From an uncultured Enterobacterales bacterium (GTDB taxonomy: Bacteria > Myxococcota_A > UBA796 > CAJQPC01), in contig CAZSAT010000010.1 of assembly GCA_964604675.1 (NCBI GenBank), forward strand, positions 10,771 through 74,770: 64,000 nucleotides of DNA, read 5' to 3'. This document shows, piece after piece, positions 25,515 to 53,745 of the stretch. Numbering within the stretch: position 1 is the first letter of the stretch; each line of letters starts with the position of its first letter. Position numbers and translations under genes: made by a program. The notes below the pieces were generated by a model. It made no database searches and was not told the DNA's origin. It saw only the letters and a program-made list of their open reading frames with translations.

Positions 25515-26084
25515 CTACAGCAGGTACACCCAGGCGGCGTACCCGCCCGCGATCACGAACATCACGCCGATGAGGCCGCCCGCGATCTTCATCCCGTCCT
25601 CGACCTTCATCGGCGCCTTCTTTGGCGCCCGCACGGGCTCGGCGGCGCGGGCGGCTGCACGGCGCTCGGCGGCCTCCCTCTGCTCGTTGGCGAGCACCGC
25701 ATCGGTCTTGCGCCAGCCCTTGACCTGCTGTTCCGAGATGCGGAGGCTGCCCAGGTCCACGCCGATGAGCTGGAAGACCTCGGCGAACTCGGGCCGTGCC
25801 CCGATGGGTTCCCAGCCGCCGCCGGCGATCTTGACCTGCTCGCGCCCCTTCAGGCTGCCGGCGTAGATCAGCTGGCGCACGGCGTAGCGGTCCAGCGTGC
25901 CCAGGGACTCGCCGCGCGGGCCCTTCAAGTCGGCGAACAGCGCGTCGGGCACGCCGGCTTCGCCGGGCATGGGGGGCACGAACGCGTGCATGCACGCCGG
26001 GCAGATCAGCTCGTCTTCGTCGGCGATGCTCTCGCTGGCGTCGAAGGACGAGCTGCAGTTCGGGCAGGTGACCGGTGCGCTCAT
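25515..26084 (-). CDS. zinc-ribbon protein with a C-terminal transmembrane anchor
   Basis: MSAPVTCPNCSSSFDA...LICPACMHAF (CxxC...CxxC), then a C-terminal helix (IAGGLIGVMFVIAGGYAAWVYLL). Confidence 0.5.
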   Translation of the reverse strand: MSAPVTCPNCSSSFDASESIADEDELICPACMHAFVPPMPGEAGVPDALFADLKGPRGESLGTLDRYAVRQLIYAGSLKGREQVKIAGGGWEPIGARPEFAEVFQLIGVDLGSLRISEQQVKGWRKTDAVLANEQREAAERRAAARAAEPVRAPKKAPMKVEDGMKIAGGLIGVMFVIAGGYAAWVYLL

Positions 26085-26130
26085 GGCTCGACGAGCCTAC
26101 AACGGGCGGCGGAGGACGATAGGCGTCGGC

Positions 26131-27966
26131 ATGGCGGAGGCGCTCTACATCGTCGGCACGGCCGGCCACATCGACCACGGCAAGACGAGCCTCGTGCGCG
26201 CGCTCACGGGTCGGGACCTCGACACCCTGCCCGAGGAGCGGCGCCGGGGCATCACCATCGCGCTCGGCTTCACGCGCCTCGATCTGGACGAGAGCCGGAG
26301 CCTGGCGTTCATCGACTGTCCCGGCCACGAGCGCCTCGTCCGCACCATGATCGCCGGTGCGAGCGGCATCGACGCCGTGCTGCTCTGTGTGAGCGCGTCG
26401 GAGGGTCTCATGCCCCAGACCCGTGAGCACCTGGCCATCGTCGAGCTGCTCGGCGTGAAGCACGGGCTGGTCGCGCTGACCATGGCGGACCTGGTGGACG
26501 ACGAGCTGGCCGAGCTCGCCGCGGAGGAGGTCGCCGACGAGCTGGTGGGCACCCCCCTCGAAGGTGCGCGCGTGATCGTCACCTCGGCCGAGACGGGCGC
26601 GGGCCTCGACGAGCTGCGGGGCGCCCTGGCCGAGCTGCCGGTCGACAGCCGGCGCGACCACGGCCCCTTCCGACTTCCCGTGGACCGGTGCTTCGTCATG
26701 AAGGGCTTCGGCACCGTCGTCACCGGCACGGTCCAGTCGGGTCGGGTGGTCGACGGCGACGAGGTGGTCCTCCTCCCCACGGGCGAGAAGGCGCGGGTGC
26801 GGGGCGTTCAGGTCCACGGCGAGGGCGTCGACGCCAGCCGCGCCGGCTTGCGGACCGCACTGAACCTGGCCGGTGTGGAGCGTGAGGCCCTCCCTCGGGG
26901 CACCGTGCTCGCCCACCCGGACCGTCTCGCCGCCACGTCGATGCTGGACGTGCGCTACCGCCACCTCGACGACGCCGTGCCGATGGAGGCCGGGGTGCGC
27001 GTGCGCCTCTGCCTCGGCACGGCCGAGGTGCTGGCCGTGCTCGACCCGCTGGACCAGGACCAGCTCCTGCCGGGCGCGGTGGGCTTTGCCCAGATCCGGA
27101 CGAGCGAGCCGGTGGTGTGCCTGCCGGGTGACCGCTTCGTGGTGCGTCGCGAGTCCCCGATCACCACCCTGGGGGGCGGCACGGTGCTCGACCCGTGGGC
27201 CAGCCGCATCCGTCGTCGCGACAAGCCTCGCGCGGTCGCGCAGCTCGAGCGGCTCGAGGCCGGGGAGGTGGCGGTGCTGCTCGAACGAGCCGGCGCGCCC
27301 GGACTGCCCAAGGAGCTCGCCGCCCGGCGCGCACCCGATGCCGGAGAAGCCCTCGGCGACGTGGTGTTGGCCCCGGCCGAGCTCGCGGCCCACGAGGGGG
27401 CGGTGCTCGCTGGCCTGCGCGGTTGGCACACCGAGCGACCCCTCGAGGCCGGTGCGCCGCGGCGCGCTCTGTGCCGGGGTCGCCTCGAGGCCCTCTCGGG
27501 GGTGGCGTTCAGCGCGCTCGTCACCCGGATGGAAGGCCAGGGCTCGCTGGTGATCGAGGGTCCCCGAGCCCGGCTCCCCGGCTTCCAGGTGCGCCTGGAC
27601 GCTGCGCAACAGGCCAGCGTGTCCACGCTGCTCGACCGCCTCGTCCCGACCGGGCTGGGAGGCCTCGACGCGGCCGAAGCCACCGAGGGCCTGCCGGACG
27701 GCGACGCGCTGCTCGCCCACCTGGTCAGCGGCGGACGCGTGGGACGGGTGGGTCCGCGGGTGTTCGACGGCCGCCACCTCCGCGATCTGGTGGGGAGGGT
27801 CCGCGCCGTGCTGGCCGCGGAGGGCGAGCTCACGCCCGGGCGCTTCAAGGAGCTCACGGGGCTCTCCCGGAAGGGCGCGATCCCGCTGCTGGAGTGGCTC
27901 GATCAGACCGGCGTGACCCTGCGCAAGGGTGACGTGCGCATCGCCCGGAAGTCTCCGCAGCGGTAG
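26131..27966 (+). CDS. selB: selenocysteine-specific translation elongation factor
   Basis: MAEALYIVGTAGHIDHGKTSL (G1) ...IDCPGHERL (G3) ...LTMADLV (G4), then long winged-helix C-terminal domains. The length and layout fit SelB rather than EF-Tu. Confidence 0.8.
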   Translation: MAEALYIVGTAGHIDHGKTSLVRALTGRDLDTLPEERRRGITIALGFTRLDLDESRSLAFIDCPGHERLVRTMIAGASGIDAVLLCVSASEGLMPQTREHLAIVELLGVKHGLVALTMADLVDDELAELAAEEVADELVGTPLEGARVIVTSAETGAGLDELRGALAELPVDSRRDHGPFRLPVDRCFVMKGFGTVVTGTVQSGRVVDGDEVVLLPTGEKARVRGVQVHGEGVDASRAGLRTALNLAGVEREALPRGTVLAHPDRLAATSMLDVRYRHLDDAVPMEAGVRVRLCLGTAEVLAVLDPLDQDQLLPGAVGFAQIRTSEPVVCLPGDRFVVRRESPITTLGGGTVLDPWASRIRRRDKPRAVAQLERLEAGEVAVLLERAGAPGLPKELAARRAPDAGEALGDVVLAPAELAAHEGAVLAGLRGWHTERPLEAGAPRRALCRGRLEALSGVAFSALVTRMEGQGSLVIEGPRARLPGFQVRLDAAQQASVSTLLDRLVPTGLGGLDAAEATEGLPDGDALLAHLVSGGRVGRVGPRVFDGRHLRDLVGRVRAVLAAEGELTPGRFKELTGLSRKGAIPLLEWLDQTGVTLRKGDVRIARKSPQR

Positions 27967-28036
27967 CTGGTCCGTCGCGCCCCGGATCGGTTGCGGAGGC
28001 CCGTGCTACGCTCCCGCGGCAGTCCGGGAGAGGTCC

Positions 28037-29113
28037 TTGTTGCACAGGCTGGCGCCGCTGTTCGGCTGGGTTCTGATGTGCCTGATGGCCGTGCCCGCAC
28101 TCGCGCAGGACGGTCCGACCGGCATCCTCCGGGTGGTGTCGGCGGTGCCTGGAAGCACGGTGCACATCGACTACGAGCAGGCGGGCGATGCCCCCCTCGT
28201 CAGCTACGTCTCCCCCGGTGCGCACACGGTGCGCGTGTCGGCCGACGGGCACGAACCCTTCGTCAGACGGGTCGAGGTCTTCGCCAACCAGACCACCGAG
28301 GTCTCCGCCCAGCTCCGTCCGGGCAAGGGCTCGGTGGAGTTCTTCGTGAAGCCCATGGGCGCGGTCGTGTTCATCCGGGGCAACGAGATCGGTCCTGCCC
28401 CGATCCGGCTGAGCCACCAGCAGGTCCAGGAGGGCACCCACCCCTACGAGGTCCGCGCGCCGCGCTACGAGCCCGTGAAGGGCGAGTTCGACTTCGGGCT
28501 CGGGAAGAACGTGCTGCTGTACCACGAGCTCGAACCGTCCGCCGGGCGCTTCAGCATCACCTCGAACCCCGAGGGCGCGTCGGTCTGGCTCGACGGTCGC
28601 CCCGTGGGCGAGACCCCCGTCAACATGCGCGACGTCGCCCAGGGTGTGCACGTGGTGCGGCTCGAGGCGGAGGGCTTCGCCACGGTCATCTCGGAGGTCG
28701 ACACCACCGATGGCAGCAAGGGCGTGGTGACCGAGCGCCTCCAGTCCAAGGGCGCCAAGGTGGTGCTCAAGACCGGGCATGCCGAGGGCGTGGCGCGCGT
28801 GCAGGGCCAGGTGCTCGGCAAGGGCAAGAAGGTCAAGCTCGAGCTGGGCAAGGGTCGCTACGACCTGACGCTCTCCAGCCCAAACGGCGAGGTCGCCGGT
28901 GTGCTCAAGGTGCCCGCGTCCGGCTGGATCGGTAGGAAGGCCGACTACGCCCACGGCACGCTGATCGAGGTGCCGCCCTTCTACCGCCGCTGGGGTTTCT
29001 GGACCGCGGTGGGCGTGGGGGCTGGCGGAGCCACCGCCGCCGCGGTGATCCTGTCCCGAGAGCCCGAGCCCGAGCCGCTGCCGGCTGGGGACCTCGTGGT
29101 CACGCTTCCTTAG
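28037..29113 (+). CDS. PEGA-domain secreted protein
   Basis: TTG start and a signal peptide (LLHRLAPLFGWVLMCLMAVPALAQD). Repeated PEGA-like units follow (PGSTVHIDYEQAGDAP, PMGAVVFIRGNEIGPAP, PEGASVWLDGRPVGETP). There is a C-terminal TM helix. Only 9 bp separate it from the next gene. Confidence 0.65.
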   Translation: MLHRLAPLFGWVLMCLMAVPALAQDGPTGILRVVSAVPGSTVHIDYEQAGDAPLVSYVSPGAHTVRVSADGHEPFVRRVEVFANQTTEVSAQLRPGKGSVEFFVKPMGAVVFIRGNEIGPAPIRLSHQQVQEGTHPYEVRAPRYEPVKGEFDFGLGKNVLLYHELEPSAGRFSITSNPEGASVWLDGRPVGETPVNMRDVAQGVHVVRLEAEGFATVISEVDTTDGSKGVVTERLQSKGAKVVLKTGHAEGVARVQGQVLGKGKKVKLELGKGRYDLTLSSPNGEVAGVLKVPASGWIGRKADYAHGTLIEVPPFYRRWGFWTAVGVGAGGATAAAVILSREPEPEPLPAGDLVVTLP

Positions 29114-29122
29114 GACCCGCGC

Positions 29123-32100
29123 ATGTTCCTGACGCTCGCCATGCTGGGATGTACCGGAGAGACGGAGGTCGAGACGAAGACCTCGATCCTCGTCGCGATC
29201 GAAGCCTCCGATCTGGCCAGCCTGGTCGCCACCGCCGACACGGTCGGCCTGGTGGTCGACCCTGACGCGCCCTTCGAGGACGCCGACGGCAACGTGCTCT
29301 CCGGTGCCTACAGCGACACGATGACCTTCGAGGACGTGGTCACCGACGACGCCGAGCTCGAGCTCGTCTACCGGGTCGATGTGGATCCGGACTGGGAAGC
29401 CATCGACGTCATCGAGCTGAAGAAGGGCCGCAACGCGCCGTCGATGGTGTTCTCGGCCCTGGGCTGGTCGGGCGACAGCGTGGTGGCCCGCAGCCAGACC
29501 ACCTCGGCCACCGACTTCGTGGACGACGAGATCCTCGAGATCACGGTGCCCGGCCTCGCGCTGCTCGACACCCCCGAGCACGACTGCAACGACACGCTCG
29601 ACAACGACGGCGACGGGTGGGCCGACGCGGCCGACCCCGACTGCGCCGACGACGGCACCAGCGAAGACGGCCTGGGCGAGAACGCCTGCAACGACGGGGT
29701 CGACAACGACGAAGACGGCACGGTCGACGCCGAGGACGACGACTGCGACGACGGCAGCGGCGAGACCGAGCACGAGCCCTGCCTCGACGGCCTCGACAAC
29801 GACGGCGACGGCTGGACCGACGACGACGACCCGGACTGCCACGAGGACTACGCCGACGAGGTCAACGCCACCTCGAGCTACGACTGCAACGACGGCGCGG
29901 ACAACGACGGCGACGGCGCCATCGACAGCGCCGACGAAGACTGCGACGACGGGCGGGACTACGAAGAGCTGCAGGCCTGCGAGAACGGTCTGGACGACGA
30001 CGGCGACGGCTGGGTCGACTTCGACGACCCCGACTGCGACACCGACGGCGACGAGCTCGGCTACACCGACGCCGAGTGCAACGACGACGAGGACAACGAC
30101 GGCGACGGCCTCGAGGACTCCGACGACCCGGCCTGCGACAGCGCGGACGACGACGAGACGGCGCTCTGCGAAGACGGCCTGGACAACGACGCGGACGGCT
30201 GGACCGATCTCGACGATCCTGGCTGTGCCAACGACGAGCTGGCCGACGAGGACGATGGCTTCGGCAGCACGGAGTGCAACGACGGCATCGACAACGACGG
30301 CGACACCTACACCGATGCCGGCGATCCCGAGTGCGCCGACGCCAACGACGACGCCGAGGCCACCATCTGCAGCGATGGTCTGGACAACGACGGCGACGGC
30401 TGGATCGACGACGACGACCCCGACTGCGGCACCGACGGCAACGAGCTGGGCTACGGCTCCACCGAGTGCAACGACGGCGCCGACAACGACGGCGACGGCA
30501 GCGCCGACGGCTCCGACGCCGACTGTGTCTCGGCCGAGGACGACGACGAGCAGGACTTCTGCAACAACGGCCTGGACGACGACGGTGACGGCTGGTTCGA
30601 CGGCGACGACCCCGACTGCGCGGTCGACGTCACCGAGAACGGCTTCGGCTCCGATGCCTGCAACGACGGCGTCGACAACGACGGCGACCTGGGCATCGAC
30701 GCCCTCGACTCGGCGTGCTCAGCGGCCACCGACAGCACCGAGGAGCCGGGCTGCGAGAACGGCCTGGACGACGACGGCGACGGCTGGATCGACGCCGACG
30801 ACCCGGAGTGCGCCACCGGCAGCGAGGAGTCCGGCAAGGCCACGGCGTACGAGTGCAACGACGAGGCGAACAACGACACCGGGGAAGACACGGCGATCGA
30901 TGCCGACGACGTCGACTGCGAGGACGGGACCGACGACTCCGAAGCGGCCGACCCGGCCTGCGACAACGGCGTCGACGACGACGGCGACGGCTGGGTCGAC
31001 CTGGACGATCCGGGCTGCGCGGACGCGGCGGACGACGACGAGAGTCCGGTGGCCTCGAGCTACGCCTGCAACGACGGCGTCGACAGCGACAGCGACGGCT
31101 GGGTCGACAGCGAGGACCCGGGCTGCGACGACGGCCTCGACAACGACGAGATCGACGTGTCGGACTGCAACGACGGCCTCGATGGCGACAACGACGGCTG
31201 GTACGACAGCGACGATCCCGACTGCGCCACGCCGGATGGCACGGAGTCCGGCTTCGGCACGACCGGCTGCAACGACGACGAGGACAACGACGAGGACGGC
31301 TACGCCGACGTCGACGATCCCGGCTGCGACGATGCCTGGGACACCAACGAGGCCGACGACGCGGACTCCTGCTCCGACGGCACCGACGACGATGGCGACG
31401 GCTGGACCGACGACGACGATCCCGACTGCGCGAGCGGCGACGAGGAGCTCGGCGTGGGCTCGACCGCCTGCAACGACGGGGTGGACAACGACGGCGACGA
31501 CCTGACCGACGCCGACGACCCCGCCTGCACCTCGGCCGAGGTGGACGACGAGACCGATGGCGACTGCCTGGACGGCCTCGACGGCGACGGCGACGGCTGG
31601 ACCGACGCCGACGACCCCGACTGCGCGACAGGGACCACCGAAGCCGGCTTCGGCGGCACGGCCTGCAACGACGGCACGGACAACGACGGTGACCTGGCCA
31701 TCGACGCGGCCGACGCGGACTGCGCGGACGCGTGGGACTCGGTGGAGGACGGCGACGTCGACGACTGCGAGAACGGCTCCGACGACGACGGGGACGGCTG
31801 GACCGACGGCGACGACGTCGACTGCCTGACCGAGGGCAGCGAGGGCGGCTACGCGGGCTGGCTCTGCAACGACGGCGTCGACAACGACGGCGACGGGGAT
31901 TTGGACGCGGACGACGCGGACTGCGTGGTCGCCTGGCAGGACTTCGAGTCGGCCGATCCGACCTGTGACAACGGCGCCGACGACGACGGCGACGGCTGGT
32001 TCGACGACGACGACCCCGACTGTGCGACGGGTGAGGACGAGGTGGGCTACACCCTGCTGGCGTGCAACAACGGCGAGGACGACGACGGCGACACCTACGC

Positions 32101-33400
32101 GGACGCCCTCGACGCCGACTGCGACGACGCCTTCGACCTCGACGAGGACGCCGCGGTGGCGAGCTGCACCAACGGCCTCGACGACGACGGCGACGGCTGG
32201 ACCGACGAGGAGGACCCGGACTGCGCCTTCGGCGGTCTGGAGCACCTGGGCGGTCTCGGCGATGCGGCGTGCAACGACGGTGCCGACAACGACGGCGACA
32301 CCTTCGCCGACGCCGACGATCTGGAGTGCCTGCTCGCCCTGCAGTCGGACGAAGACCTCGCCGACCTCGGCAGCTGCGACAACGACACCGACGACGACGG
32401 CGACGGCTGGACCGACTGGGACGACCCGGACTGCTTGATCTACGGCGGCGAGCTCGCTTGGTCGCTGAGCGTCTGCAACAACGGCGCGGACGACGACGGG
32501 GACGGTGACGTGGATGCCGACGACCGCGGCTGCGAGCACGGCCTCGATCCCGAGGAGGCCGACGCGGCCGTGGTCTGCATCAACGGCGCCGACGACGACG
32601 GCGACGGCTGGATCGACGACGCGGACCCGGACTGCGTGGTGAGCACTGCGGAGGCGGGTGCCACGGGCGTGGCGGAGTGCGAGGACGGCGTGGACAACGA
32701 TGGCGACGGCGCCACCGACGGCGACGACGAGCAGTGCACGACCGCGCTCGACAACCTCGAGGCTTTGTCCTCCGGCGCCGACTGCGACGACGGCACCGAC
32801 AACGACGGCGACGGCTGGACCGACGGCGACGACCCGGACTGTGGCTGGGGTGCGAGCGAGGAGGGCTACGAGACCTCCTGGGACTGCAACGACGGCACCG
32901 ACGGCGACAAGGATGGCTACATCGACGCCGACGACCCCGGCTGCGACTCCGCCTTCGACGACGACGAGACGCACATCGACGGGTGCGCCAACGGCGAGGA
33001 CGACGATGGCGACGGCTGGATCGACCTGGACGATCCGGGCTGCCCGACAGCCACCACCCTCGACGAGGACGACGGTGTGGCGGGGGAGTACACCTGCAAC
33101 GACGGCGTGGACAACGACAAGGACGGCCTGGCCGACGCCGACGACCCCGGCTGCGACGACGGCTACGACACCGACGAGGCCGACCCGTCCACGGAGTGCA
33201 ACGACGGCGTGGACAACGACGGCGACGGCTGGATCGATCTGGACGACCCGGTCTGCACCGACGTCGGGGTCCTGCTGGAGGACGACGGGCTCGACACCGA
33301 CGTCGAGTGCAACGATGGCCTGGACAACGACACCGACGGGCTGGCCGACAGCGCCGACAGCGACTGCAGCTCGGCGGAGGACAACAACGAGACGAGCTGA
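29123..33400 (+). CDS. giant acidic lipoprotein (1425 aa) of about 50 thrombospondin-type-3-like Asp/Cys repeats
   Basis: A lipobox (MFLTLAMLGCTGE) and a 150-aa N-terminal domain. The body is an uninterrupted array alternating C-x-[DN]-G-x-D-[ND]-D-G-D-G-W-x-D-x-D-D-P-[DG]-C with C-N-D-G-x-D-N-D-G-D-x-x-x-D-x-x-D-x-x-C. The DxDxDGxxDxxD spacing matches TSP3/EF-hand-like Ca2+ loops bracketed by Cys pairs. Confidence 0.8.
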   Translation: MFLTLAMLGCTGETEVETKTSILVAIEASDLASLVATADTVGLVVDPDAPFEDADGNVLSGAYSDTMTFEDVVTDDAELELVYRVDVDPDWEAIDVIELKKGRNAPSMVFSALGWSGDSVVARSQTTSATDFVDDEILEITVPGLALLDTPEHDCNDTLDNDGDGWADAADPDCADDGTSEDGLGENACNDGVDNDEDGTVDAEDDDCDDGSGETEHEPCLDGLDNDGDGWTDDDDPDCHEDYADEVNATSSYDCNDGADNDGDGAIDSADEDCDDGRDYEELQACENGLDDDGDGWVDFDDPDCDTDGDELGYTDAECNDDEDNDGDGLEDSDDPACDSADDDETALCEDGLDNDADGWTDLDDPGCANDELADEDDGFGSTECNDGIDNDGDTYTDAGDPECADANDDAEATICSDGLDNDGDGWIDDDDPDCGTDGNELGYGSTECNDGADNDGDGSADGSDADCVSAEDDDEQDFCNNGLDDDGDGWFDGDDPDCAVDVTENGFGSDACNDGVDNDGDLGIDALDSACSAATDSTEEPGCENGLDDDGDGWIDADDPECATGSEESGKATAYECNDEANNDTGEDTAIDADDVDCEDGTDDSEAADPACDNGVDDDGDGWVDLDDPGCADAADDDESPVASSYACNDGVDSDSDGWVDSEDPGCDDGLDNDEIDVSDCNDGLDGDNDGWYDSDDPDCATPDGTESGFGTTGCNDDEDNDEDGYADVDDPGCDDAWDTNEADDADSCSDGTDDDGDGWTDDDDPDCASGDEELGVGSTACNDGVDNDGDDLTDADDPACTSAEVDDETDGDCLDGLDGDGDGWTDADDPDCATGTTEAGFGGTACNDGTDNDGDLAIDAADADCADAWDSVEDGDVDDCENGSDDDGDGWTDGDDVDCLTEGSEGGYAGWLCNDGVDNDGDGDLDADDADCVVAWQDFESADPTCDNGADDDGDGWFDDDDPDCATGEDEVGYTLLACNNGEDDDGDTYADALDADCDDAFDLDEDAAVASCTNGLDDDGDGWTDEEDPDCAFGGLEHLGGLGDAACNDGADNDGDTFADADDLECLLALQSDEDLADLGSCDNDTDDDGDGWTDWDDPDCLIYGGELAWSLSVCNNGADDDGDGDVDADDRGCEHGLDPEEADAAVVCINGADDDGDGWIDDADPDCVVSTAEAGATGVAECEDGVDNDGDGATDGDDEQCTTALDNLEALSSGADCDDGTDNDGDGWTDGDDPDCGWGASEEGYETSWDCNDGTDGDKDGYIDADDPGCDSAFDDDETHIDGCANGEDDDGDGWIDLDDPGCPTATTLDEDDGVAGEYTCNDGVDNDKDGLADADDPGCDDGYDTDEADPSTECNDGVDNDGDGWIDLDDPVCTDVGVLLEDDGLDTDVECNDGLDNDTDGLADSADSDCSSAEDNNETS
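29580..33385 (+). repeat. in-frame tandem DNA repeat array encoding the Asp/Cys repeats
   Basis: Near-identical stretches such as tgcaacgacggcgtcgacaacgacggcgacggc and gacgacgacggcgacggctgg recur dozens of times. The codon bias gives long open antisense frames, for example 30719..34807 on the minus strand. Confidence 0.8.
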
Positions 33401-33454
33401 TCGGGCGGGCTGATCCGTTAGGGGGCGCTCCGCTGAAGCGCGCCGGGAGATCCC

Positions 33455-35221
33455 ATGCTGTCCACCGTCCGTCGTACCCACACCTGCGGCGAGCTCCGTG
33501 CCGAGCACGAGGGCACCACCGTCCGACTCCAGGGCTGGGTCAACAGCTACCGTGACCTGGGCGGTGTGGTCTTCGTCGACCTCCGGGACCGCTACGGCGT
33601 GGTCCAGATCACCGCTGACGAGCGCGTGGCCGACGAGCTCCGCGCGGTCGCCGCGCGCTGCCGCAACGAGTACGTCGTCGAGATCTCCGGCACGGTCGCG
33701 GTGCGTTCGAACCCCAACCAGCGCCTCCCCACGGGCGCGGTCGAGGTCATCCCCAGCTCGGTGGAGATCCTGTCGACCACGCCGCCGCTGCCGTTCTCGC
33801 TCGAGACCGCCGCCGACGCCCACGAGGAGACGCGCCTCCGCTACCGCTACCTCGACCTGAGGCGCCCGGAGCTGCTGGCCAACTTCACCACGCGGCACAA
33901 GGCGGCGCAGTCGGTCCGGCGCTACCTCGACAGCGAGAGCTTCCTCGAGGTCGAGACCCCGGTCCTGACCAAGGCCACGCCGGAGGGGGCGCGCGACTAC
34001 CTGGTGCCGAGCCGCGTGCACGAAGGCCAGTGGTACGCCCTGCCCCAGAGCCCGCAGCTGTTCAAGCAGATCCTGATGATCTCGGGCTTCGATCGCTACT
34101 TCCAGATCGTGAAGTGCTTCCGCGACGAGGACCTGCGCGCCGACCGCCAGCCCGAGTTCACCCAGATCGACATCGAGATGACCTTCCCGGTGCGCGAGAC
34201 CGTGATGGAGGTGGCCGAGGGGGTGGCGCGCAACATGTGGCAGGACGTGCTGGGTCGGGACATCGGGGCGATCCCCCGGCTGTCCTACGACGAGTCGATG
34301 CGCCGCTTCGGGGTCGATGCTCCCGACATCCGCTTCGGTCTCGAGCACAGCGTCGTCACCTCCGAGCTCGCGGGGTCGGAGTCGCAGGTCATCCAGGGCG
34401 GCCTGGTCGATGGCGGCATCGCGAAGGCCTTCGCGATCCCGGGCGGTGCCAGCAAGGCGTCGCGGAAGGTGCTCGACCGCTGGACGCAGTTCGTGCGGCG
34501 GTACGGCATGGGTGGGCTCTTGTGGGGCAAGCTCGTCGATGGCGCCTGGAGCGGGCCGATGGGCAAGCTCCTGAGCGACGACGAGCGGTCGGCGGTGGCC
34601 TCGGCCACGGGCGCGTCGGACGGCGACCTGGTGCTCCTGGGTGTCGGGCCGGCAGCCCGCGTGCATGCAGGGCTCGGCAAGCTCCGCGCGAGCCTGGGCA
34701 AGGAGCTCGAGCTCATCGAGCCGGGCGTGTTCGCCTTCTGCTGGGTCGTCGACTTTCCGAGCTTCGAGTGGGACGAGGACGCCGAGCGCTACTTCGCGTG
34801 CCACCACCCGTTCACGTCACCGCGCCCCGAGCACCGCCACCTGCTGGCGCACCCCGAGCGCCTGGGTGAGGTCTACGCCGACGCCTACGACCTGGTGTGC
34901 AACGGCTACGAGATCGCGGGCGGCTCCATCCGAATCCACGACCAGGAGCTGCAGGGCCACGTGTTCAAGGCGCTCGGTCTCTCCGAGGAGGAGGCCGAGG
35001 AGAAGTTCGGCTTCCTGCTCGAGGCGCTGCAGCACGGTGCGCCGCCCCACGGTGGTATCGCCTTCGGCTTCGATCGCTGCGTGATGCTCCTGGCCGGCAC
35101 GGAGAACATCCGTGACGTGATCGCCTTCCCCAAGACCGCGAGCGCCCAGGACCTGATGAGCGGCGCCCCCAGCTCGGTGGATGCCGATCAGCTGGCAGAG
35201 GTCCACGTCAGGAACGTCTGA
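33455..35221 (+). CDS. aspS: aspartate--tRNA ligase
   Basis: MLSTVRRTHTCGELRAEHEGTTVRLQGWVNSYRDLGGVVFVDLRDRYG (anticodon-binding OB fold), QSPQLFKQILMISGFDRYFQIVKCFRDEDLRADRQPEFTQID (class II motif 2), and GGSIRIHD...LEALQHGAPPHGGIAFGFDR (motif 3). Confidence 0.9.
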   Translation: MLSTVRRTHTCGELRAEHEGTTVRLQGWVNSYRDLGGVVFVDLRDRYGVVQITADERVADELRAVAARCRNEYVVEISGTVAVRSNPNQRLPTGAVEVIPSSVEILSTTPPLPFSLETAADAHEETRLRYRYLDLRRPELLANFTTRHKAAQSVRRYLDSESFLEVETPVLTKATPEGARDYLVPSRVHEGQWYALPQSPQLFKQILMISGFDRYFQIVKCFRDEDLRADRQPEFTQIDIEMTFPVRETVMEVAEGVARNMWQDVLGRDIGAIPRLSYDESMRRFGVDAPDIRFGLEHSVVTSELAGSESQVIQGGLVDGGIAKAFAIPGGASKASRKVLDRWTQFVRRYGMGGLLWGKLVDGAWSGPMGKLLSDDERSAVASATGASDGDLVLLGVGPAARVHAGLGKLRASLGKELELIEPGVFAFCWVVDFPSFEWDEDAERYFACHHPFTSPRPEHRHLLAHPERLGEVYADAYDLVCNGYEIAGGSIRIHDQELQGHVFKALGLSEEEAEEKFGFLLEALQHGAPPHGGIAFGFDRCVMLLAGTENIRDVIAFPKTASAQDLMSGAPSSVDADQLAEVHVRNV

Positions 35222-43138: not shown

Positions 43139-44626
43139 GTGCTGTGCAGCCTGCTGATGGTCGTCCACGCCTCCGATACCGGACTGGCGGGCCTCGACGC
43201 GCTCGACCTCGTGCGGGTGGACGACCCCGATCATCCCGACGCCATCGCGCGCTCGGCGACCGGTGCGGTGCTGTCCGCGCCGCCCGAGTCCGGATCGTGG
43301 TCGCGCGAGGTCGTGCCCGGCGTCGACGCCTACCAGGCCCACGAGGCGGTCACGGCGATCGCCGCAGAGCCCTGGCACGAGGCGGGGTTCACGGGGGCCG
43401 GGGTGTCGGTCGCCGTGTTCGATCTGCAGTGGTTCGGCAGCGACCTGGTGCCCGAGGAGCTCGGCGACGTGGCCACGTGGGACTGCTGGGCGCACGCGAG
43501 GTGCACGGTCGAGATGGACAACCTGCGGCCGCGCTTCGCCTACGAGAACGGGAACCACGGGGTGGCCTGCGCCGAGGTGGTTCGCGACCTCGCGCCCGAC
43601 GCGGATCTCCACCTGGTGAGGGTGAACGGGCGCACCACCTTCGAGAACGCCGCCGCCTGGGCGATCCGCGAGGGCATCGACGTGGTGTCGATGTCCCTGT
43701 CGTTCTACGCCGACAGCTTCCACGACGGCACGGGTCCGGTGAACGCCATCGCAGAGGATCTGGCCGACGCGGGCGTGCTCGTGACGGTGAGCGCCGGGAA
43801 CTCCGCGCGTGGACACTGGCAGGAGCGCTTCTCCGACGCCGATGCGGATGGCCTGCACGGCTTCCCGTGGGGATCCGAGTACCTGCCGATCTATCTGGAG
43901 GCCGGGGGCACCCGGAAGATCACCGTGATGTGGGACGAGTTCGGTCGCTGCGGCGAGACCGACCTCGACGTGCGGGTCTACCGTGGCGATGGCGCCCTGC
44001 TCGATCGCTCCGAGGGCGTGCAGGCGGGTGGGAGTGGGTGTGAGCCGGTCGAGCGCGTGAACCCCCAGGTGGACGACGACGGCTGGGTCTACCTCCAGAT
44101 CGAGCGGGTCGCCGGGGGTGGTGACGTCCGCTTCGACGTGCTGACCCGCGCCGGGGACGTGTACCAGTCCATGGCCGGTGGCTCCACGGCGGACCCGGCG
44201 AGCCACCCGGGGTCCTGGACTGTCGGGGCGGTCGCGGGCACGGGGTACCTGGACAACGGAGCGGAGTCGTTCTCGTCGTATGGGCCGACCAACGGCGGCG
44301 AGCCCAAGCCCGACATCGCGGCCCCCGACGGGGTGAGCGGCAGCGCCTATGGCGCACGGGGCTTCTACGGCACCTCGGCCTCGGCGCCGGTCGCGGCGGC
44401 CGCTGCCGCTCTGGTGCTCAGTCGGTACGAAGGGCTGACCCCGCGCGAGGCGGCGGACAAGCTCGAGAGCTGGGCGATGAGCGATGGCGCCGTGTTCGAG
44501 GGCCCTGACCAGGCCTACGGCGCGGGAAAGCTCCGCCTCCCCCCGCCCGACGCGAGCGGAGGCTGTGGCGCCGGTCTGTTCTACGCCGTGCTGCTGCTGC
44601 CCCTTGGCGTGCTGGGCCGCCGATGA
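43139..44626 (+). CDS. S8 (subtilisin-like) serine peptidase with a MYXO-CTERM-type C-terminal sorting tail
   Basis: Catalytic residues sit in VSVAVFDLQW (Asp), NGNHGVACAEV (His) and YGTSASAPVAAAAAAL (Ser). The C-terminus SGGCGAGLFYAVLLLPLGVLGRR has a GC, a hydrophobic helix and an Arg tail, like the MYXO-CTERM signal. Confidence 0.8.
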   Translation: MLCSLLMVVHASDTGLAGLDALDLVRVDDPDHPDAIARSATGAVLSAPPESGSWSREVVPGVDAYQAHEAVTAIAAEPWHEAGFTGAGVSVAVFDLQWFGSDLVPEELGDVATWDCWAHARCTVEMDNLRPRFAYENGNHGVACAEVVRDLAPDADLHLVRVNGRTTFENAAAWAIREGIDVVSMSLSFYADSFHDGTGPVNAIAEDLADAGVLVTVSAGNSARGHWQERFSDADADGLHGFPWGSEYLPIYLEAGGTRKITVMWDEFGRCGETDLDVRVYRGDGALLDRSEGVQAGGSGCEPVERVNPQVDDDGWVYLQIERVAGGGDVRFDVLTRAGDVYQSMAGGSTADPASHPGSWTVGAVAGTGYLDNGAESFSSYGPTNGGEPKPDIAAPDGVSGSAYGARGFYGTSASAPVAAAAAALVLSRYEGLTPREAADKLESWAMSDGAVFEGPDQAYGAGKLRLPPPDASGGCGAGLFYAVLLLPLGVLGRR

Positions 44627-44663
44627 TCGAGCTTCGCGGTACGCTGGGCGCTGTGGAGGTCCG

Positions 44664-46967
44664 ATGACGCTGCTCTTCGCTGTGCTCGCATGCAAGGGCG
44701 ACGACGGCGGTTCTGGGTTCGAGCTCGAGCTCTTCGAAGACGCCCACCTCCCCGAGAGCGTCACACCCGCTTCGGCCGTGGGCTTCGGCGCGCTCAGCAT
44801 CCCGGTGCGCGTGGTGAACGCCTACGGCGCCTCGGTCGGTGGCGACAGCGTCACCGTCGAGCTGTCGGGGCCCGGGCTGGGCACCAGCTCGCAGACCCTG
44901 GACCCCGACGCGCTCGGCCTGGCCGTCGCCGTGGTCGGCGAAGGAGCCGCCCAGGCGGTGACCGCCACCGTCACCGGCTCCTCGTATGGCAACAGCGATC
45001 CCGTGGACAGCTACCTGTTGGGCCCCGGCCGGTCGCTCGATCTGCTGCCCTCGTTCCTGCTCGAAGGCGAGCCGTCGCATCTCGTGGCCGCGCCCGGTGG
45101 CATGGGCGTGGTCATCGGCTCCGAGGTCTGGTGGCAGCCCGCCGTGGTGGGAGCTGCGCCGCAGCGCATGCTGTCGGTGCCGTCGGAGCTCGAGGGCGCG
45201 TGGGGCTCCGACCTCGATCAGGACGGGGCCACCGACCTGGTCGTCTGGAACGCCGAGGCGGTCTACCTCCTACGCGGTCACGGGTCCGGAGGCTACGCCT
45301 GGGGCGCTGGCTTCCAGCCCACCACCGGCGCCATCACGTGGGTCGCCGTGGGCGACGTGGACGACAACGGCGTGCGCGACATCGCCGTGGTCTACGAAGC
45401 GTCGGGCGTGACCGGGGTCAGCACGCTCCTCAACGACGGGCTGTGGCGCTTCACCGCGCGCTCCAACCTCGAGCTGACCGCCGACCCGATCGTGTCGGCC
45501 GCAGTGGGACGCTTCGCGCCCGAGGGCGCGTCGGGGCTCGCCGTACACACCTCCTCCGGCAACATCGATCGCTACGGCTGGATCGACGGCCGCTGGGTGA
45601 GCCAGGGCCAGGACCTGTCGGTGAAGCTGAGCAACGGGCTGTTGATGCCGTCGCACGACCTGAACGGTGATCTGGTCGACGAGCTCGTGCTGGTGGCCCC
45701 CGACGACGGCACCGAGGCGGCGCGCGATCTGCTCCTCATCGACATGAACGACGGTCCTCGCACCTACGCGCTGGCCTACGAGAGCTTCCACATGACCTTC
45801 GCCGACCTCACGGGCGACCTGGTCGACGACCTCGTGATGGTGGACCGCGGCTCGGATGGCCCCCGTGTGGGCGTGATCACGCAGAGCGACGCGGGCTTCA
45901 ACCACCGCACCCTGGCGCTGCTCCGCGACACGGGCCCGGTGGCGGCTGGACGGTTGGAGTCCAGCGACCTGCTCGCCGATGTGGCCGTCGGTCTGGACCA
46001 CCTGCAGCTCTTCCCGGGCGCCGAGAACGAGAGCGGCTGGACCCTGGCGGAGCCCTCCTACACCAGCTGGGCGACCGACGCCTTGGCGCCGGTCCGCGTG
46101 GGCGACTGGGACGCGGACGGAGTGGCGGAGGTCCTCACCGTGAGAGAGCGCGACGACGGCGACGGCGAGGCCGCGGCGCTCACGCGCCTCGCGTTCTCCT
46201 ATGACCCTCACAGCGGGGAGCTGGGCCTCATCCACCAGGACTCCGTGGTGGTCGATGGGGTCGACCCGGACGCCACGGCGGTGGGCCTCGATCTGGCCAT
46301 CTGCGACGACCGCGCCTGGTTGCTGGTCGACGATGGCGGGCAGAGCGTCCTGTACGGCGTCGCGCTTCAGGGGCACGGCTACCTCGACGCGGTCGCGGAT
46401 CCTGTCGCCCTCTCCGGCCAGGACCTGGTGGCCTGCGGGCTCTTCGAGGACGGGGACGTGGCGGTCTCCGGCGAGGACGGCGACGTGGACATCTACGCCT
46501 TCGGCGAGTCCGACGAGCCCCTGGGCGGGGCCACCCTCGGAGACGTGTTCGACATCGTCGGGCAACGGGCGGATGGCGAGCCGGCCCAGGTGGTCGGCTG
46601 TGCGACCGCCGGCTGCAGCGTGCACGTGGTCGACCTCGACGGCGACGGCACCGAGGAGCTCGTGAAGGGTGGGGAGTCGCTCGAGGTCGAGGCCTTCGGA
46701 ACCACCTGGACCGCGGCGGTCTCGGGGGTCGCCGGATCGCTGGACATCGACGGCGACGGCCAGCGCGATGCCAGCGTGACCGACCTCGCCCACGGCGACA
46801 TCGCCGTGTTGGCCACGCTCGCGGGGGGCCTGGGCCCTGTGCTCATCTACCGGTGGGAGCGGGAGGTCGGTGGACCGCTCGGCCTGGTGGACATCGACCG
46901 GGACGGGTCACCGGAGGTCGTCGCCGAGGGCGTGAACGGCTCCCTGGTGCACACCCCGGTCGACTGA
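44664..46967 (+). CDS. large FG-GAP/VCBS-like repeat lipoprotein (767 aa)
   Basis: ATG at 44664 with ggaggt upstream and a lipobox (MTLLFAVLACKG). Repeated DxDxDG loops follow (DLDQDGATDLVVW, VGDVDDNGVRDIAVV, DLNGDLVDELVLV, DLTGDLVDDLVMV, GDWDADGVAEVL, DLDGDGTEELV, DIDGDGQRDASV, DIDRDGSPEVV). Confidence 0.6.
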   Translation: MTLLFAVLACKGDDGGSGFELELFEDAHLPESVTPASAVGFGALSIPVRVVNAYGASVGGDSVTVELSGPGLGTSSQTLDPDALGLAVAVVGEGAAQAVTATVTGSSYGNSDPVDSYLLGPGRSLDLLPSFLLEGEPSHLVAAPGGMGVVIGSEVWWQPAVVGAAPQRMLSVPSELEGAWGSDLDQDGATDLVVWNAEAVYLLRGHGSGGYAWGAGFQPTTGAITWVAVGDVDDNGVRDIAVVYEASGVTGVSTLLNDGLWRFTARSNLELTADPIVSAAVGRFAPEGASGLAVHTSSGNIDRYGWIDGRWVSQGQDLSVKLSNGLLMPSHDLNGDLVDELVLVAPDDGTEAARDLLLIDMNDGPRTYALAYESFHMTFADLTGDLVDDLVMVDRGSDGPRVGVITQSDAGFNHRTLALLRDTGPVAAGRLESSDLLADVAVGLDHLQLFPGAENESGWTLAEPSYTSWATDALAPVRVGDWDADGVAEVLTVRERDDGDGEAAALTRLAFSYDPHSGELGLIHQDSVVVDGVDPDATAVGLDLAICDDRAWLLVDDGGQSVLYGVALQGHGYLDAVADPVALSGQDLVACGLFEDGDVAVSGEDGDVDIYAFGESDEPLGGATLGDVFDIVGQRADGEPAQVVGCATAGCSVHVVDLDGDGTEELVKGGESLEVEAFGTTWTAAVSGVAGSLDIDGDGQRDASVTDLAHGDIAVLATLAGGLGPVLIYRWEREVGGPLGLVDIDRDGSPEVVAEGVNGSLVHTPVD

Positions 46968-48032: not shown

Positions 48033-48083
48033 GGCAAGGACTTTTCTTACCGGTACGGGCAAGACTGCCCCGGAGCGATGCTC

Positions 48084-51980: not shown

Positions 51981-53723
51981 TCAGTCGGTGACGTAGAGGT
52001 CGTCGAAGGCCGCGCTGCCCGGGTCTTTCGCGGCGTCGAACACGGCCAGGGCCGGGTAGCCACGGCCCACGTCGACGTCCACGGTGGTGGTGAAGGCGGT
52101 CACCCCCTCGACGCGGAAGGCGATGGTGCTGCCGCTGACCTCCATGCTCAGGCGGTTCGGCAGGTCGGTGCCCGGCATGAGGTAGGGCGCGAAGCTCGCG
52201 TCGGTGAGGGGGACGTAGACACCGGCTTCGATGCGGCCCGCGTTCCAGCGGACCTTCGTGTCCTCGGAGATGCCGAAGAAGTACCCATCCGTGAGGCCCT
52301 GGGTGTCGCGGCTGACGTAGAGACCGATGATCGAGCCGCCGTCGCCCGCGGTGCGCGTGACGTCGGCGTCGAAGCGCCACTCGCCGCTCAGGTAGTGGTC
52401 CTCGTAGACCAGGATGTCCCAGGCGTCGTCACCGTCGCCCACGTGCTCGATGTCGTCCGGTCCGTCCTGGAATCCGTTCTCGTCGGGCACCCAGCCGAAG
52501 CTGCCCGCGTCGAGGTCCATGATGCCCGGCAGGGCCTGGTCGCAGGGCAGGCTTCCCTCGTCGAAGAGCAGATCGCAGTCGTTGTCCACCCCATCGCAGG
52601 TCTCGGTGGCCCCCGGGTACACGGTGACCAGGGCGTCGTTGCAGTCGCTGTTGCAGTCCACCCCGTCCCCGTCGCGGTCGTCCACGTCGTCCAGGTCGCA
52701 GTTGCGGTCGACCCCGTCGCAGAACTCCGAGAGGCTCGCGTGGATCTGGGGGTCGAGGTCGTCGCAGTCGGCGCCTCCACAGGCGACGTCGTCGTCGCCG
52801 TCCCGGTCGATGTCGGCGTCGTCCACGGTGCCGTTGCAGTCGTTGTCGGCCCCGTCGCCGCAGATCTCGTCGAAGTTCACGTTGCTGGTGGGGTCGAGGT
52901 CGTCGCAGTCGGCCCCTCCGCACTCCGCGGCCACGGTGCCGTCTCCGTCGTTGTCCTGGAAGTCGGCGCGCCCGTCGCAGTTGTTGTCGACCCCGTCGTC
53001 GTTGCAGAAGTCGTCGGCGTCGGGGTGGATGGCGTCGTCGTCGTCGTCGCAGTCGTCACCGCCGCAGGACTCCGCCGTGAAGCCGTCGCCGTCGGCGTCC
53101 AGATCGCCCGTGTCGCCATCGCAGTCGTGGTCGAGCTCGTCGCACTGTTCCTCGGCATCCGGGTGCGTGGTGTCGTCGGCGTCGTCGCAGTCGCTCCCGC
53201 CGCAGGCGGCGGAGAGGTGGCCGTCGAAGTCGGCGTCGTCGCGATCGGTGCTGCCGTTGCAGTCGTTGTCGACGCCGTCGAAGCAGTTCTCGGTGGCCTC
53301 GGGCGAGATCAGGGGGTCCAGGTCATCGCAGTCCTCGCCCCCGCAGGCGATGGCTGCGTAGCCGTCGCCGTCATCGTCCACGTCGTCGACCTTGCCGTTG
53401 CAGTCGTCGTCGACGGCGTTGCAGATCTCGGTCGCGCTGGGGTTCACCGTGTCGTCGTCGTCGTTGCAGTCGCTCCCTCCGGGGCAGCCTGCGGCGTAGT
53501 GACCGTCTTCGTCCAGGTCGACGATCACCTCGTCAGCGATGCCGTTGCAGTCGTTGTCCACCCCGTCGCAGATCTCGAGCGCGTCGGGATGGATCGCGTC
53601 GTCGAGGTCGTTGCAGTCGCTGCCGACGGGACAACTCGCCGCCGAGGAGAAGCCATCGCCGTCGAGGTCGACGGCGCAGGGGTCGGTGCTGCACGCCAGC
53701 AAGAGGAGGGGGCCGAGGGGCAT
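51981..53723 (-). CDS. lipoprotein with about 9 MopE-like 'putative metal-binding motif' Cys/Asp repeats and a C-terminal lectin-like (ConA/LamG-like) domain
   Basis: A lipobox (MPLGPLLLLACSTDPC). Repeats of the form DCNDxDDxxxPxAxExCDGVDNDCNGxxDE match the MopE-type pattern (for example GSDCNDDDDTVNPSATEICNAVDDDCNGKVDD). The C-terminal 180 aa are non-repetitive and beta-rich. Confidence 0.75.
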   Translation of the reverse strand: MPLGPLLLLACSTDPCAVDLDGDGFSSAASCPVGSDCNDLDDAIHPDALEICDGVDNDCNGIADEVIVDLDEDGHYAAGCPGGSDCNDDDDTVNPSATEICNAVDDDCNGKVDDVDDDGDGYAAIACGGEDCDDLDPLISPEATENCFDGVDNDCNGSTDRDDADFDGHLSAACGGSDCDDADDTTHPDAEEQCDELDHDCDGDTGDLDADGDGFTAESCGGDDCDDDDDAIHPDADDFCNDDGVDNNCDGRADFQDNDGDGTVAAECGGADCDDLDPTSNVNFDEICGDGADNDCNGTVDDADIDRDGDDDVACGGADCDDLDPQIHASLSEFCDGVDRNCDLDDVDDRDGDGVDCNSDCNDALVTVYPGATETCDGVDNDCDLLFDEGSLPCDQALPGIMDLDAGSFGWVPDENGFQDGPDDIEHVGDGDDAWDILVYEDHYLSGEWRFDADVTRTAGDGGSIIGLYVSRDTQGLTDGYFFGISEDTKVRWNAGRIEAGVYVPLTDASFAPYLMPGTDLPNRLSMEVSGSTIAFRVEGVTAFTTTVDVDVGRGYPALAVFDAAKDPGSAAFDDLYVTD

Positions 53724-53745
53724 CGTCCCCGGATGTTACCTGTCC

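Follow-up and report, generated by a model that had tools for sequence, protein, structure and literature searches.

Giant acidic repeat proteins of an uncultured Myxococcota-like bacterium, predicted to be Ca2+-binding lipoproteins, are related in sequence to the teneurin C-rich domain

The DNA analysed here (the window) is a stretch of 64,000 nucleotides from contig CAZSAT010000010.1 of an uncultured bacterium (assembly GCA_964604675.1). It encodes a protein, P1, that consists largely of 38 copies of an acidic, cysteine-bracketed unit, and a second protein, P2, that carries 15; both open reading frames (ORFs) are present as an earlier, sequence-only reading of the stretch had described them. 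The unit belongs to a known repeat family and is related to the C-rich domain of teneurins, the Ca2+-bound structure of which has been solved. We propose that P1 is a lipid-anchored, Ca2+-stiffened and disulfide-stapled polyanionic filament or spacer of the cell envelope, and put the probability of this reading as a whole at roughly 0.6. Its molecular part, in which Ca2+ cages closed by disulfides follow one another in tandem and share ancestry with the core of the teneurin C-rich domain, we hold to be very probable, whereas the cellular role, a structural and Ca2+-dependent one as filament or spacer of the envelope or surface, is suggested tentatively. In this model a lipid anchor holds a chain of 38 very small Ca2+ cages, set in A/B pairs that are joined by short conserved linkers. 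P1 would take up its stiff fold only when oxidised and carrying Ca2+, that is, outside the cytoplasm, as expected from its net charge of about -504.

After the predicted lipid-bearing Cys10, P1 contains 76 cysteines, which form 38 pairs 19 residues apart (21 in a single pair). The unit is exactly 20 residues from Cys to Cys (C-x18-C), the exceptions being one C-x20-C unit in P1 and one C-x24-C unit in P2. Linkers of 10-17 residues separate the units, giving a period of about 33 residues and an A/B super-repeat of about 66. Twenty P1 units have Trp at position 12 (A units, consensus C-x-[DN]-G-L-D-[DN]-D-G-D-G-W-x-D-x-D-D-P-D-C) and 18 lack it (B units, C-N-D-G-x-D-N-D-G-D-x-x-x-D-A-x-D-x-x-C). 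The two kinds alternate strictly, except that the unit at residue 649 occupies a B slot yet carries Trp. The linkers are also conserved, with E-x-G-[YF]-G behind A units and x-x-A-x-D-x-x-E behind B units. Seven positions (C1, D6, D8, D10, D14, D17 and C20) are invariant in all 37 canonical units of P1 and in all 51 of P1 and P2 taken together. Within P1, position 3 is D or N in 37 of 37 units, position 7 D or N in 33 and position 19 D or E in 24. The array takes up 88% of the protein (residues 155-1415). Its super-repeats are 39-65% identical to each other (mean 51%), no closer than the best matches in orthologues, and a few positional one-to-one matches between super-repeats persist between P1 and its orthologues; by these comparisons the array is old and free of homogenisation.

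This anatomy modifies the sequence-only reading, which had seen two proteins made almost entirely of about 50 alternating Trp and non-Trp units of 22-24 residues. Fifty is right as a sum (38 + 15 = 53) and wrong for either protein; the unit has to be redrawn as 20 residues from Cys to Cys within a period of about 33 and a super-repeat of about 66; the alternation is real, with the one exception in P1; and near-complete occupation by repeats is true of P1 but not of P2, 59% of which is repeat. The Asp spacing that it reported, DxDxDGxxDxxD, equals D6-x-D8-x-D10-G11-x-x-D14-x-x-D17 exactly.

Comparison of P1 with all sequences in the PDB gave one specific match, the 49-residue C-rich domain of teneurin-4 (7PLP). 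A profile built from the 51 units found 16 PDB matches at E<=10, of which 12 were chains of teneurin-2, -3 or -4, all at the C-rich domain; the best of them, 7PLP (E=4.2e-5), is aligned from Cys to Cys without a gap. EF-hand, lanmodulin and calmodulin loops and one unrelated putative oxidoreductase made up the others, and no thrombospondin, dockerin or LDL-receptor module was found among the 16. The profile of a sibling repeat with four cysteines per unit, described below, matched 13 teneurin chains, including fly Ten-m, at E values of 3.3e-10 to 5.8e-5, and nothing else significantly in the PDB. In this case the alignment runs without gaps over 30 residues, and includes the upstream Glu, four identically spaced cysteines and the Pro before the last Cys.

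The C-rich domain of human teneurin-4 was solved at 1.5 Å by Meijer et al. and holds three octahedrally coordinated Ca2+ ions, which stabilise the protein (PMC9058538). The side-chain ligands are E835, D840, D843, N844, D845, D847, D851, D854 and D856, further ligands being the carbonyls of A837, K842 and L849 and two waters. Sites I and II resemble thrombospondin type 3 and site III the LDL-receptor-A module, and the disulfides are C838-C857, C852-C863 and C858-C869 (PMC9058538). With C838 set at unit position 1, the side-chain ligands fall on positions 3, 6, 7, 8, 10, 14, 17 and 19, the carbonyls on 5 and 12, and C857 on 20. These are the positions that are conserved and selected in P1, from which we infer that each unit is a Ca2+ holder closed by Cys1 and Cys20. 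The 20-residue unit would wrap two Ca2+ ions, possibly three, within this disulfide, using Asp 6, 8, 10, 14 and 17, Asp or Asn at 3 and 7, usually Asp 19, and the carbonyls of 5 and 12. The alignment gives good support to two predicted ions per unit and less to a third, and roughly 76-114 Ca2+ would be bound per P1 molecule. The earlier description of the loops as thrombospondin type 3- or EF-hand-like, Ca2+-binding and disulfide-stapled thus survives as chemistry, through the teneurin alignment with its ligands and disulfide, but not as family membership, as no hidden Markov model (HMM) of those families matches. An AlphaFold2 model of P1 residues 412-542, made with the internal repeats as alignment, reached a predicted local distance difference test score (pLDDT) of 76 and contains only two 5-residue helices in 131 residues; the repeat part of a P2 model has likewise almost no secondary structure. 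So little secondary structure at a pLDDT of 76 fits metal-organised loops rather than disorder. The teneurin link offers a concrete, testable mechanism for the whole family and a rational reading of its invariant positions.

Genomes of high GC content yield long spurious ORFs, and this window (GC about 70%) has its own, such as a 1362-residue antisense ORF at 30719..34807 and one of 2370 residues at 56844..63956; the long opposite-strand ORFs are the usual antisense artefacts of such DNA. The idea that P1 itself is a non-coding or antisense frame, or the product of a collapsed or chimeric repeat assembly, is nevertheless effectively refuted. The G+C content at third codon positions (GC3) is 0.95 in P1 and 0.94 in P2, and that at second positions 0.44 in both, which is the codon signature of the real genes of this genome. 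Exactly the same 1425-residue product is encoded on 5 contigs from at least three independent assemblies (JGI 3300024344, JGI 3300009703 and ENA ERZ27251152 represent three of these places). At the DNA level Tandem Repeats Finder detects periods of 192-201 bp with a match of only about 65%. The collapse of repeats during assembly, which the sequence-only reading had named as a possible undoing of its claim, is ruled out by the three assemblies and by the divergence of the repeats.

Further evidence comes from a sister genome (locus L093; aspartyl-tRNA synthetase, AspRS, 91% identical), in which a P1 orthologue of 1425 residues lies in the same position. A gapped alignment of the two proteins shows 80% identity, only two single-residue indels, and equal length and unit number. 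None of the 74 bracket cysteines and none of the 185 core Asp residues at the five invariant positions is changed. The predicted ligand positions differ at 10 of 296 places, all at 3, 7 or 19 and mostly by D/N swaps, and Trp is retained in 19 of 20 A units, against a background of 33% change at other positions within units and 26% in linkers. The ratio of non-synonymous to synonymous substitution rates (dN/dS) is 0.34 overall, and 0.28, 0.42 and 0.37 for units, linkers and N-terminal domain, respectively. This is strong evidence that P1 is a translated gene under purifying selection. It also marks out the pattern of cysteines and Asp residues as the functional core of the protein.

The repeats are not outside the annotated families, as the sequence-only reading had supposed. 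NF033662 (NCBIfam, acid_disulf_rpt, named ‘acidic double-disulfide repeat-containing protein’) matches P1 with 526.2 bits (E 2.4e-162, 36 stretches) and P2 with 228.4 bits (E 2.9e-69, 15 stretches), far above its cut-off of 41, and was the sole match to the repeats among the family libraries searched. These scores and the DNA periodicity of 192-201 bp put the pattern far beyond chance. The model spans 32 positions. Four-cysteine repeats such as those of proteins P0297, P0095 and P0243 fit it from position 1 or 4 to position 32 at about 35 bits per unit, whereas the units of P1 and P2, with two cysteines each, fit positions 4-27/29 only, at about 19 bits; the four cysteines and two disulfides per roughly 32 residues of the full profile do not occur in P1 or P2. 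The four-cysteine repeat (consensus E-x-C-x-[DN]-G-x-D-[ND]-D-G-D-G-x-x-D-C-x-D-P-D-C-x-x-x-P-x-C, period about 33 residues, up to about 40 copies per protein) was found in P0243, P0095, P0244, P0033, P0297 and 26 other retrieved proteins, and is what NF033662 really models. Profiles of the two unit types align with an hhalign probability of 97.8% (E 1e-12) over 26 gapless columns, by which measure they are clearly homologous. P1 and P2 are a new, unmodelled, single-disulfide and A/B-alternating variant of a known, uncharacterised family rather than a new kind of system. Pfam returned nothing for whole P1 or P2 at E<=1, with TSP_3, Dockerin, EF-hand and MopE included in the search. For four repeat segments of 131-142 residues it returned, at E<=10, nothing but one sub-threshold match of a P2 segment to MopE (PF11617; E 0.18; 12.5 bits where 27 are required), so that membership of TSP_3, Dockerin_1 or Cu-binding_MopE, the families to which the earlier reading had pointed, was not found.

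The family is large. A profile of two super-repeats, searched against 1.84 billion representative clusters, matched 10,339 of them at E<=1e-3; 4,255 passed E<=1e-10 and 894 passed E<=1e-30. At least 1,654 proteins with units came up in a word-indexed search, the units being fused to LTD, PKD, DUF11, PPC, Stig1, TIG, beta-helix and other domains of secreted proteins; the alternation of Trp and non-Trp units is restricted to a subset of the unit-bearing proteins. A scan of genome contigs with the P2-family alignment was seeded on the repeat motifs, and returned repeat loci from many phyla, not P2 orthologues. Most of these loci are in metagenome-assembled genomes (MAGs) labelled Myxococcota or Deltaproteobacteria, others in Bdellovibrionota, Bradymonadaceae, several candidate-phyla bacteria and DPANN archaea, and no cultured isolate was among the repeat-bearing matches of the scan. 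The candidate-phyla labels in loci L004-L083 comprise Peribacteria, Saccharibacteria, Magasanikbacteria and Campbellbacteria, and the DPANN labels Woese-, Nano-, Pace- and Micrarchaeota. Some repeat contigs bear the labels Klebsiella pneumoniae, Enterobacterales or Rickettsiales, which are implausible, and several of the MAG labels look unreliable. The spread suggests either wide horizontal transfer of the module or errors of binning and labelling. As to the host, relatives of its AspRS at 60-71% identity are all from MAGs, the named ones being Alphaproteobacteria, Deltaproteobacteria, Proteobacteria/Pseudomonadota and Myxococcota; one ‘Alphaproteobacteria’ assembly among them carries the isolate tag ‘HK-STAS-MYXO-43’. 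An uncultured Myxococcota-like lineage is the safest statement, and ‘Myxococcales’ is plausible. We found no publication that names the family, the accession NF033662 or the motif in a bacterial context. The repeat stands in more than 10,000 representative metagenome protein clusters, from Myxococcota-like and candidate-phyla bacteria and from small archaea; within this family P1 is typical, if extreme.

From their N-termini both proteins are predicted, with good support, to be lipoproteins, in agreement with the lipoboxes of the sequence-only reading. P2 starts M(LM)NPILLLLAAC, with a lipobox Cys that does not vary across the 39 family sequences aligned; longer signals that contain Arg occur in some members. 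P1 starts MFLTLAMLGC, and a longer N-terminus is impossible, an in-frame TAG lying 9 nt upstream. The lipobox Cys is also present in the P1-type orthologues: the L093 protein starts MLLTLAIWGC, that of locus L092 has the signal MRLLLLSLLFVGC (lipobox LLFVGC, with Arg), and that of P0001, the P1-type protein of locus L084, reads ...RFARLFLLLIAVPSTLWLGAC (...STLWLGAC, also with Arg). Four secreted proteins of the window, with starts at 29123, 48078/48084, 40665 and 53723 (minus strand), have hydrophobic lipobox signals of 10-13 residues with neither Lys nor Arg (MFLTLAMLGC, MNPILLLLAAC, VPVLFALTAC and MPLGPLLLLAC). Such short signals look like a style specific to the lineage, and could escape standard predictors.

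The sequence-only reading missed a local fact that is new here, the conserved translational coupling of P1 to a membrane protein with PEGA domains. The partner combines a signal peptide with PEGA repeats and a C-terminal transmembrane helix, and ends in a conserved ...VVTLP tail, which across orthologues reads G-D-[LV]-V-V-T-L-P (or ...YVLP) after the helix. Its stop codon TAG overlaps an AGGA Shine-Dalgarno sequence 7 nt ahead of the P1 ATG. The junction ‘CTTCCTTAGGA’, with the stop codon inside the Shine-Dalgarno sequence, is common to the window (29100..29125) and L084 (7975..8003), and in L092 (4825..4835) there is an ATGA stop/start overlap instead. The pair occurs in the window, L084, L092 and L093, with either a 9-nt gap or the ATGA overlap, and P1 would be co-produced with the PEGA protein through this coupling. 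A joining of the two by selenocysteine or read-through came into consideration (they share a frame and SelB is adjacent), and was rejected as the stop is TAG, not TGA, and is followed by a Shine-Dalgarno sequence and ATG.

The partners are diverse. The PEGA orthologue of L084 shows 27.5% identity (E 1e-29); its companion, P0001, has 2209 residues with extra LTD domains. The companion in L092 has 1693 residues, 44 units and an N-terminal domain 36% identical to that of P1 (E 1e-25), the corresponding figure for P0001 being 30%. This domain was found only in P1-type orthologues; it has no Pfam match, and alone gave no match among 5.8 billion proteins. The order SelB, PEGA, repeat lipoprotein, AspRS is kept in the window (25897..35221), L084 and L093, also between genomes with repeat proteins only 45% identical, although SelB and AspRS are obviously unrelated to P1 in function. 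In L092 SelB is absent and the PEGA-P1 pair is kept; in a further relative, L091, the PEGA and P1 genes are both absent upstream of AspRS. Repeat proteins that lack the P1-type N-terminal domain (P0004, P0006) have no PEGA neighbour. The pairing is specific to P1-type genes and is the best functional lead.

P2 is a different protein around the same module. Besides its repeats it has non-repeat domains of 148 residues at the N-terminus and 245 at the C-terminus, both beta-rich in the AlphaFold2 model (pLDDT up to 95). No PDB entry matched the whole model below E 0.07 in Foldseek, the terminal domains have no significant PDB neighbour, and the C-terminal domain has no Pfam match. Its NCBI/ENA copy, P0051, uses the Met at 48084 as start. 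The family comprises proteins of 915-1080 residues, with 38 homologues that possess both terminal domains and whose individual repeats align in register. The N-terminal domains of P1 and P2 are unrelated and each protein has its own orthologues elsewhere, so the two are paralogues, as first described, in the repeat module and not in the rest. P2 would be a second, independently conserved lipoprotein in which 15 units link two beta-rich domains. Exact look-ups of P2 and P0051 gave no genomic context; as read from the homologues, it is a conserved run of peptidase S8, a hypothetical gene, FG-GAP_3, in some cases an epimerase, and P2, farther along from which lie an aromatic amino-acid lyase gene and a giant one. 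The block with MopE and FG-GAP proteins that had been taken for an adhesion, matrix or biomineralisation system is present, and the order S8, FG-GAP_3, P2 is syntenic, but its standing as a functional system is weakly supported: since SelB and AspRS flank P1 in equally conserved order, gene order alone is no sign of function in this lineage.

For the role of the array we favour the filament or spacer. In many relatives the module separates distal domains (LTD, PKD, TIG, DUF11) from a lipid anchor; this wide placement, the fixed number of units in close orthologues, the two conserved domains that the module connects in P2, and the co-production of P1 with a membrane-anchored PEGA protein all argue for it. 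A number of points weigh against the reading. For no member of the family did we find in the literature an experiment on Ca2+ binding, disulfides, lipidation or expression. The match between unit and teneurin is short and biased in composition, about 10 of roughly 36 raw bits being removed as bias. The ligand E835 has no conserved counterpart three residues before Cys1 of the P1 units, which, with only about 65% acidic residues at position 19, makes the third Ca2+ site uncertain. The P1 signal has only 10 residues and no basic one, and a periplasmic location would look the same in sequence as one on the surface. The PEGA linkage is restricted to one lineage. Lastly, P1 and its L092 orthologue have no distal domain that a ‘stalk’ could present, and with nothing at that end the array may itself be the functional part, as a reservoir, a Donnan polyanion, a cross-linked layer or a nucleator.

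This last point leads to a reading of the array as a high-capacity cation store, buffer or mineral nucleator, which would sequester or release Ca2+ (or lanthanides, Mn or Fe), set the Donnan potential of the periplasm, or template Ca mineral on the envelope. The composition invites it: P1 is 29% Asp, 13% Gly and 5.4% Cys, and of the residues of the mature protein 414 are Asp and 101 Glu, against only 11 Lys and Arg together. P1 and the L092 orthologue amount to an anchor, a small N-terminal domain and an array, with no effector domain, and the weak matches to lanmodulin and EF-hand loops show a loop chemistry generic for hard cations. Known acidic mineralisation proteins, however, are typically loose, low-affinity polyanions, and the invariant Cys, five Asp and Trp of P1 and its fixed number of units point to a defined fold with structural Ca2+. 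As the module is also mostly a spacer within multidomain proteins, and no transporter or mineral-related genes adjoin P1, we give the store a minor share of the probability. A Ca2+-dependent adhesin or docking scaffold, in which A/B pairs bind protein or glycan, dockerin-like with PEGA or other partners or cadherin-like and homophilic, in contacts between cells, with prey or with matrix, seems improbable to us. The teneurin C-rich domain does take part in a Ca2+-stabilised dimer interface (PMC9058538), a presumably exposed Trp stands in every second unit and is kept in all but one case in the orthologue, P1 is coupled to the PEGA protein, and secreted FG-GAP, MopE and S8 neighbours are syntenic with P2. 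Yet no Dockerin or cohesin model in Pfam matches P1 or P2, the modelled units have none of the helices of dockerins and EF-hands, no partner was identified, and synteny here extends to unrelated housekeeping genes. Binding of copper in the manner of MopE, or of a redox metal, is very improbable. MopE-motif proteins are encoded nearby and the unit resembles the second half of the MopE motif (hhalign probability 70%, E 4e-5, 18 columns), but PF11617 has no match in P1 and only the sub-threshold one in P2, and the conserved ligands are carboxylates and amides, suited to Ca2+, with no conserved His, Met or free Cys. The structural filament or spacer remains the reading that we prefer.

The same alignments bear on the origin of the teneurin domain. 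Tucker et al. (2012) noted likenesses of its core to the MopE motif, to gametolysins of algae and to a glucanase from a diatom, and suggested that it came from a diatom or an alga (PMC3278476). A 2026 study found bacterial teneurin-like proteins to be most frequent in Myxococcota, and did not discuss the C-rich region (PMC13018210). On the sequence evidence the bacterial repeat family is a plausible alternative source, above all its four-cysteine branch, in which four teneurin cysteines recur at identical spacing. Among 360 retrieved proteins we found no convincing YD/RHS-rich fusion partners of the units. A wider scheme, which we consider speculative and rather unlikely, would have a single large bacterial superfamily with one or two disulfides per unit, richest in Myxococcota-like genomes, as the source of the teneurin C-rich domain, and the PEGA-coupled pure arrays as a hitherto undescribed Ca2+-gated polymer of the envelope. 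If true, the C-rich domain would be bacterial like the teneurin YD-shell and not, as proposed in 2012, of diatom or algal descent; the P1-type polymer would be rigid or cross-linked at the Ca2+ concentration of seawater and collapse without Ca2+, and might nucleate mineral. With bacterial homologues so abundant, and with four of the six cysteines of teneurin shared by some of them at the same spacing, a bacterial origin can be put to a direct test.

Table 1 Positions in the window of P1, P2, their parts and the neighbouring genes discussed
Feature	Position	Strand	Basis and remarks
P1, acidic repeat lipoprotein, 1425 aa	29123..33400	+	ATG-start ORF, NF033662 match, composition, dN/dS
P1 short lipoprotein-type signal MFLTLAMLGC, Cys10 at 29150-29152	29123..29152	+	read from sequence
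P1 N-terminal non-repeat domain, aa 11-154	29153..29584	+	similarity to P1-type orthologues
P1 array, 38 C-x18-C units = 19 A/B super-repeats	29585..33367	+	unit list, position-wise conservation, Tandem Repeats Finder
PEGA-domain membrane protein	28037..29113	+	Pfam PEGA E=1.2e-41, 3 stretches; ORF open from 27929, JGI start 28037
P2 lipoprotein, 949 aa (947 aa from second Met 48084)	48078..50927	+	ORF, NF033662, 38 homologues
P2 repeat array, 15 units, aa 149-704	48522..50189	+	in register across 39-member family alignment
P2 C-terminal beta-rich domain, aa 705-949	50190..50927	+	33-82% identity in family members
Peptidase S8 gene	43139..44626	+	Pfam; upstream of P2, syntenic with P2 homologues
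FG-GAP_3 gene	44484..46967	+	Pfam; upstream of P2, syntenic in L087, L089, L092
Lipoprotein with 8 MopE-type Cys motifs	51981..53723	-	Pfam PF11617 E=4.6e-62; distant cousin of the repeat

Some further genes of the window were noted. An aromatic amino-acid lyase is encoded at 53539..55353, and the lyase and the giant gene also follow the P2 homologues of L087 and L089. The 2370-residue ORF on the minus strand at 56844..63956 is a spurious antisense frame rich in Arg, Gly and Ala. The real gene is on the plus strand at about 57489..64000, open from about 57.5 kb to past the end of the window (more than 2100 residues, GC3 0.94), and holds a ketosynthase-like ‘VAIVGLGCRLPG’ motif. The lyase and the giant gene probably belong to a polyketide synthase cluster with an aryl starter unit. 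In the MopE-type lipoprotein each MopE motif is followed by a short D-x-D-x-D-G loop, such as ‘DLDEDGH’ or ‘DDDGDGY’, and a C-terminal domain of about 200 residues has no Pfam match.

Among known systems, the units share with thrombospondin type 3 (TSP-1, 1UX6) the DxDxDGxxDxxD spacing inside loops that have no regular secondary structure and that, in the units, are predicted to be disulfide-closed and Ca2+-organised; the spacing of the cysteines and the length of the repeat differ, and neither the TSP_3 HMM nor a thrombospondin chain in the PDB gave a match. For type 3 (T3) repeats of bacterial OmpA we refer to Dai et al. (2017; PMID 28807152), as cited in PMC12045341. With the MopE motif (PF11617, Cu-binding_MopE) the common ground is the half-motif C-x-DG-x-DND-x-DG-xx-D: the second half of the motifs in the MopE-type lipoprotein of the window corresponds to the first half of the P1 and P2 units, whereas the cysteines of the MopE motif are arranged differently, one of them standing where the unit has Gly9, and the motif has a further half on its N-terminal side. 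The analogy with TraA of Myxococcus is a functional one only: in this lipid-anchored surface protein a long, Cys-rich repeat region stiffened by disulfides is proposed to serve as the stalk of a distal domain (PMC12045341). Unlike those of P1, the TraA repeats are beta-hairpins and not acidic, bind no Ca2+ and bear no sequence relation. EF-hand and dockerin loops, as in calmodulin and lanmodulin, have the DxDGDGxxD loop chemistry in common with the units. Four consecutive units, at their period of about 33 residues, align in register with the four loops of calmodulin (E about 1e-3), a likeness that is limited to the loops: P1 and P2 have no helix-loop-helix and no such Pfam match, and EF-hands are not closed by a disulfide. 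The likeness to calmodulin and lanmodulin probably reflects convergence of loop chemistry, and hints that the units might bind lanthanides.

The closest relatives are the members of NF033662 and the teneurins. P1 and P2 share with NF033662, which carries no function, the acidic DxDxDG core and the first disulfide, and add the A/B alternation, the invariant Trp and linkers of 10-17 residues. The 20 residues at the core of the teneurin C-rich domain, CxDxxDNDGDGxxDxxDPDC, align without gaps, C838-C857 corresponds to Cys1-Cys20, and all in-loop side-chain ligands (D840, D843, N844, D845, D847, D851, D854 and D856) are kept. In teneurin the domain occurs once, its six cysteines are paired 1-3, 2-5 and 4-6, and there is a conotoxin-like tail. 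P1 and P2, in contrast, have the 1-3 pair only; position 15 is never Cys and the linker is free of cysteines, and the unit, which stands alone in teneurin, is repeated 15-44 times in these predicted lipoproteins.

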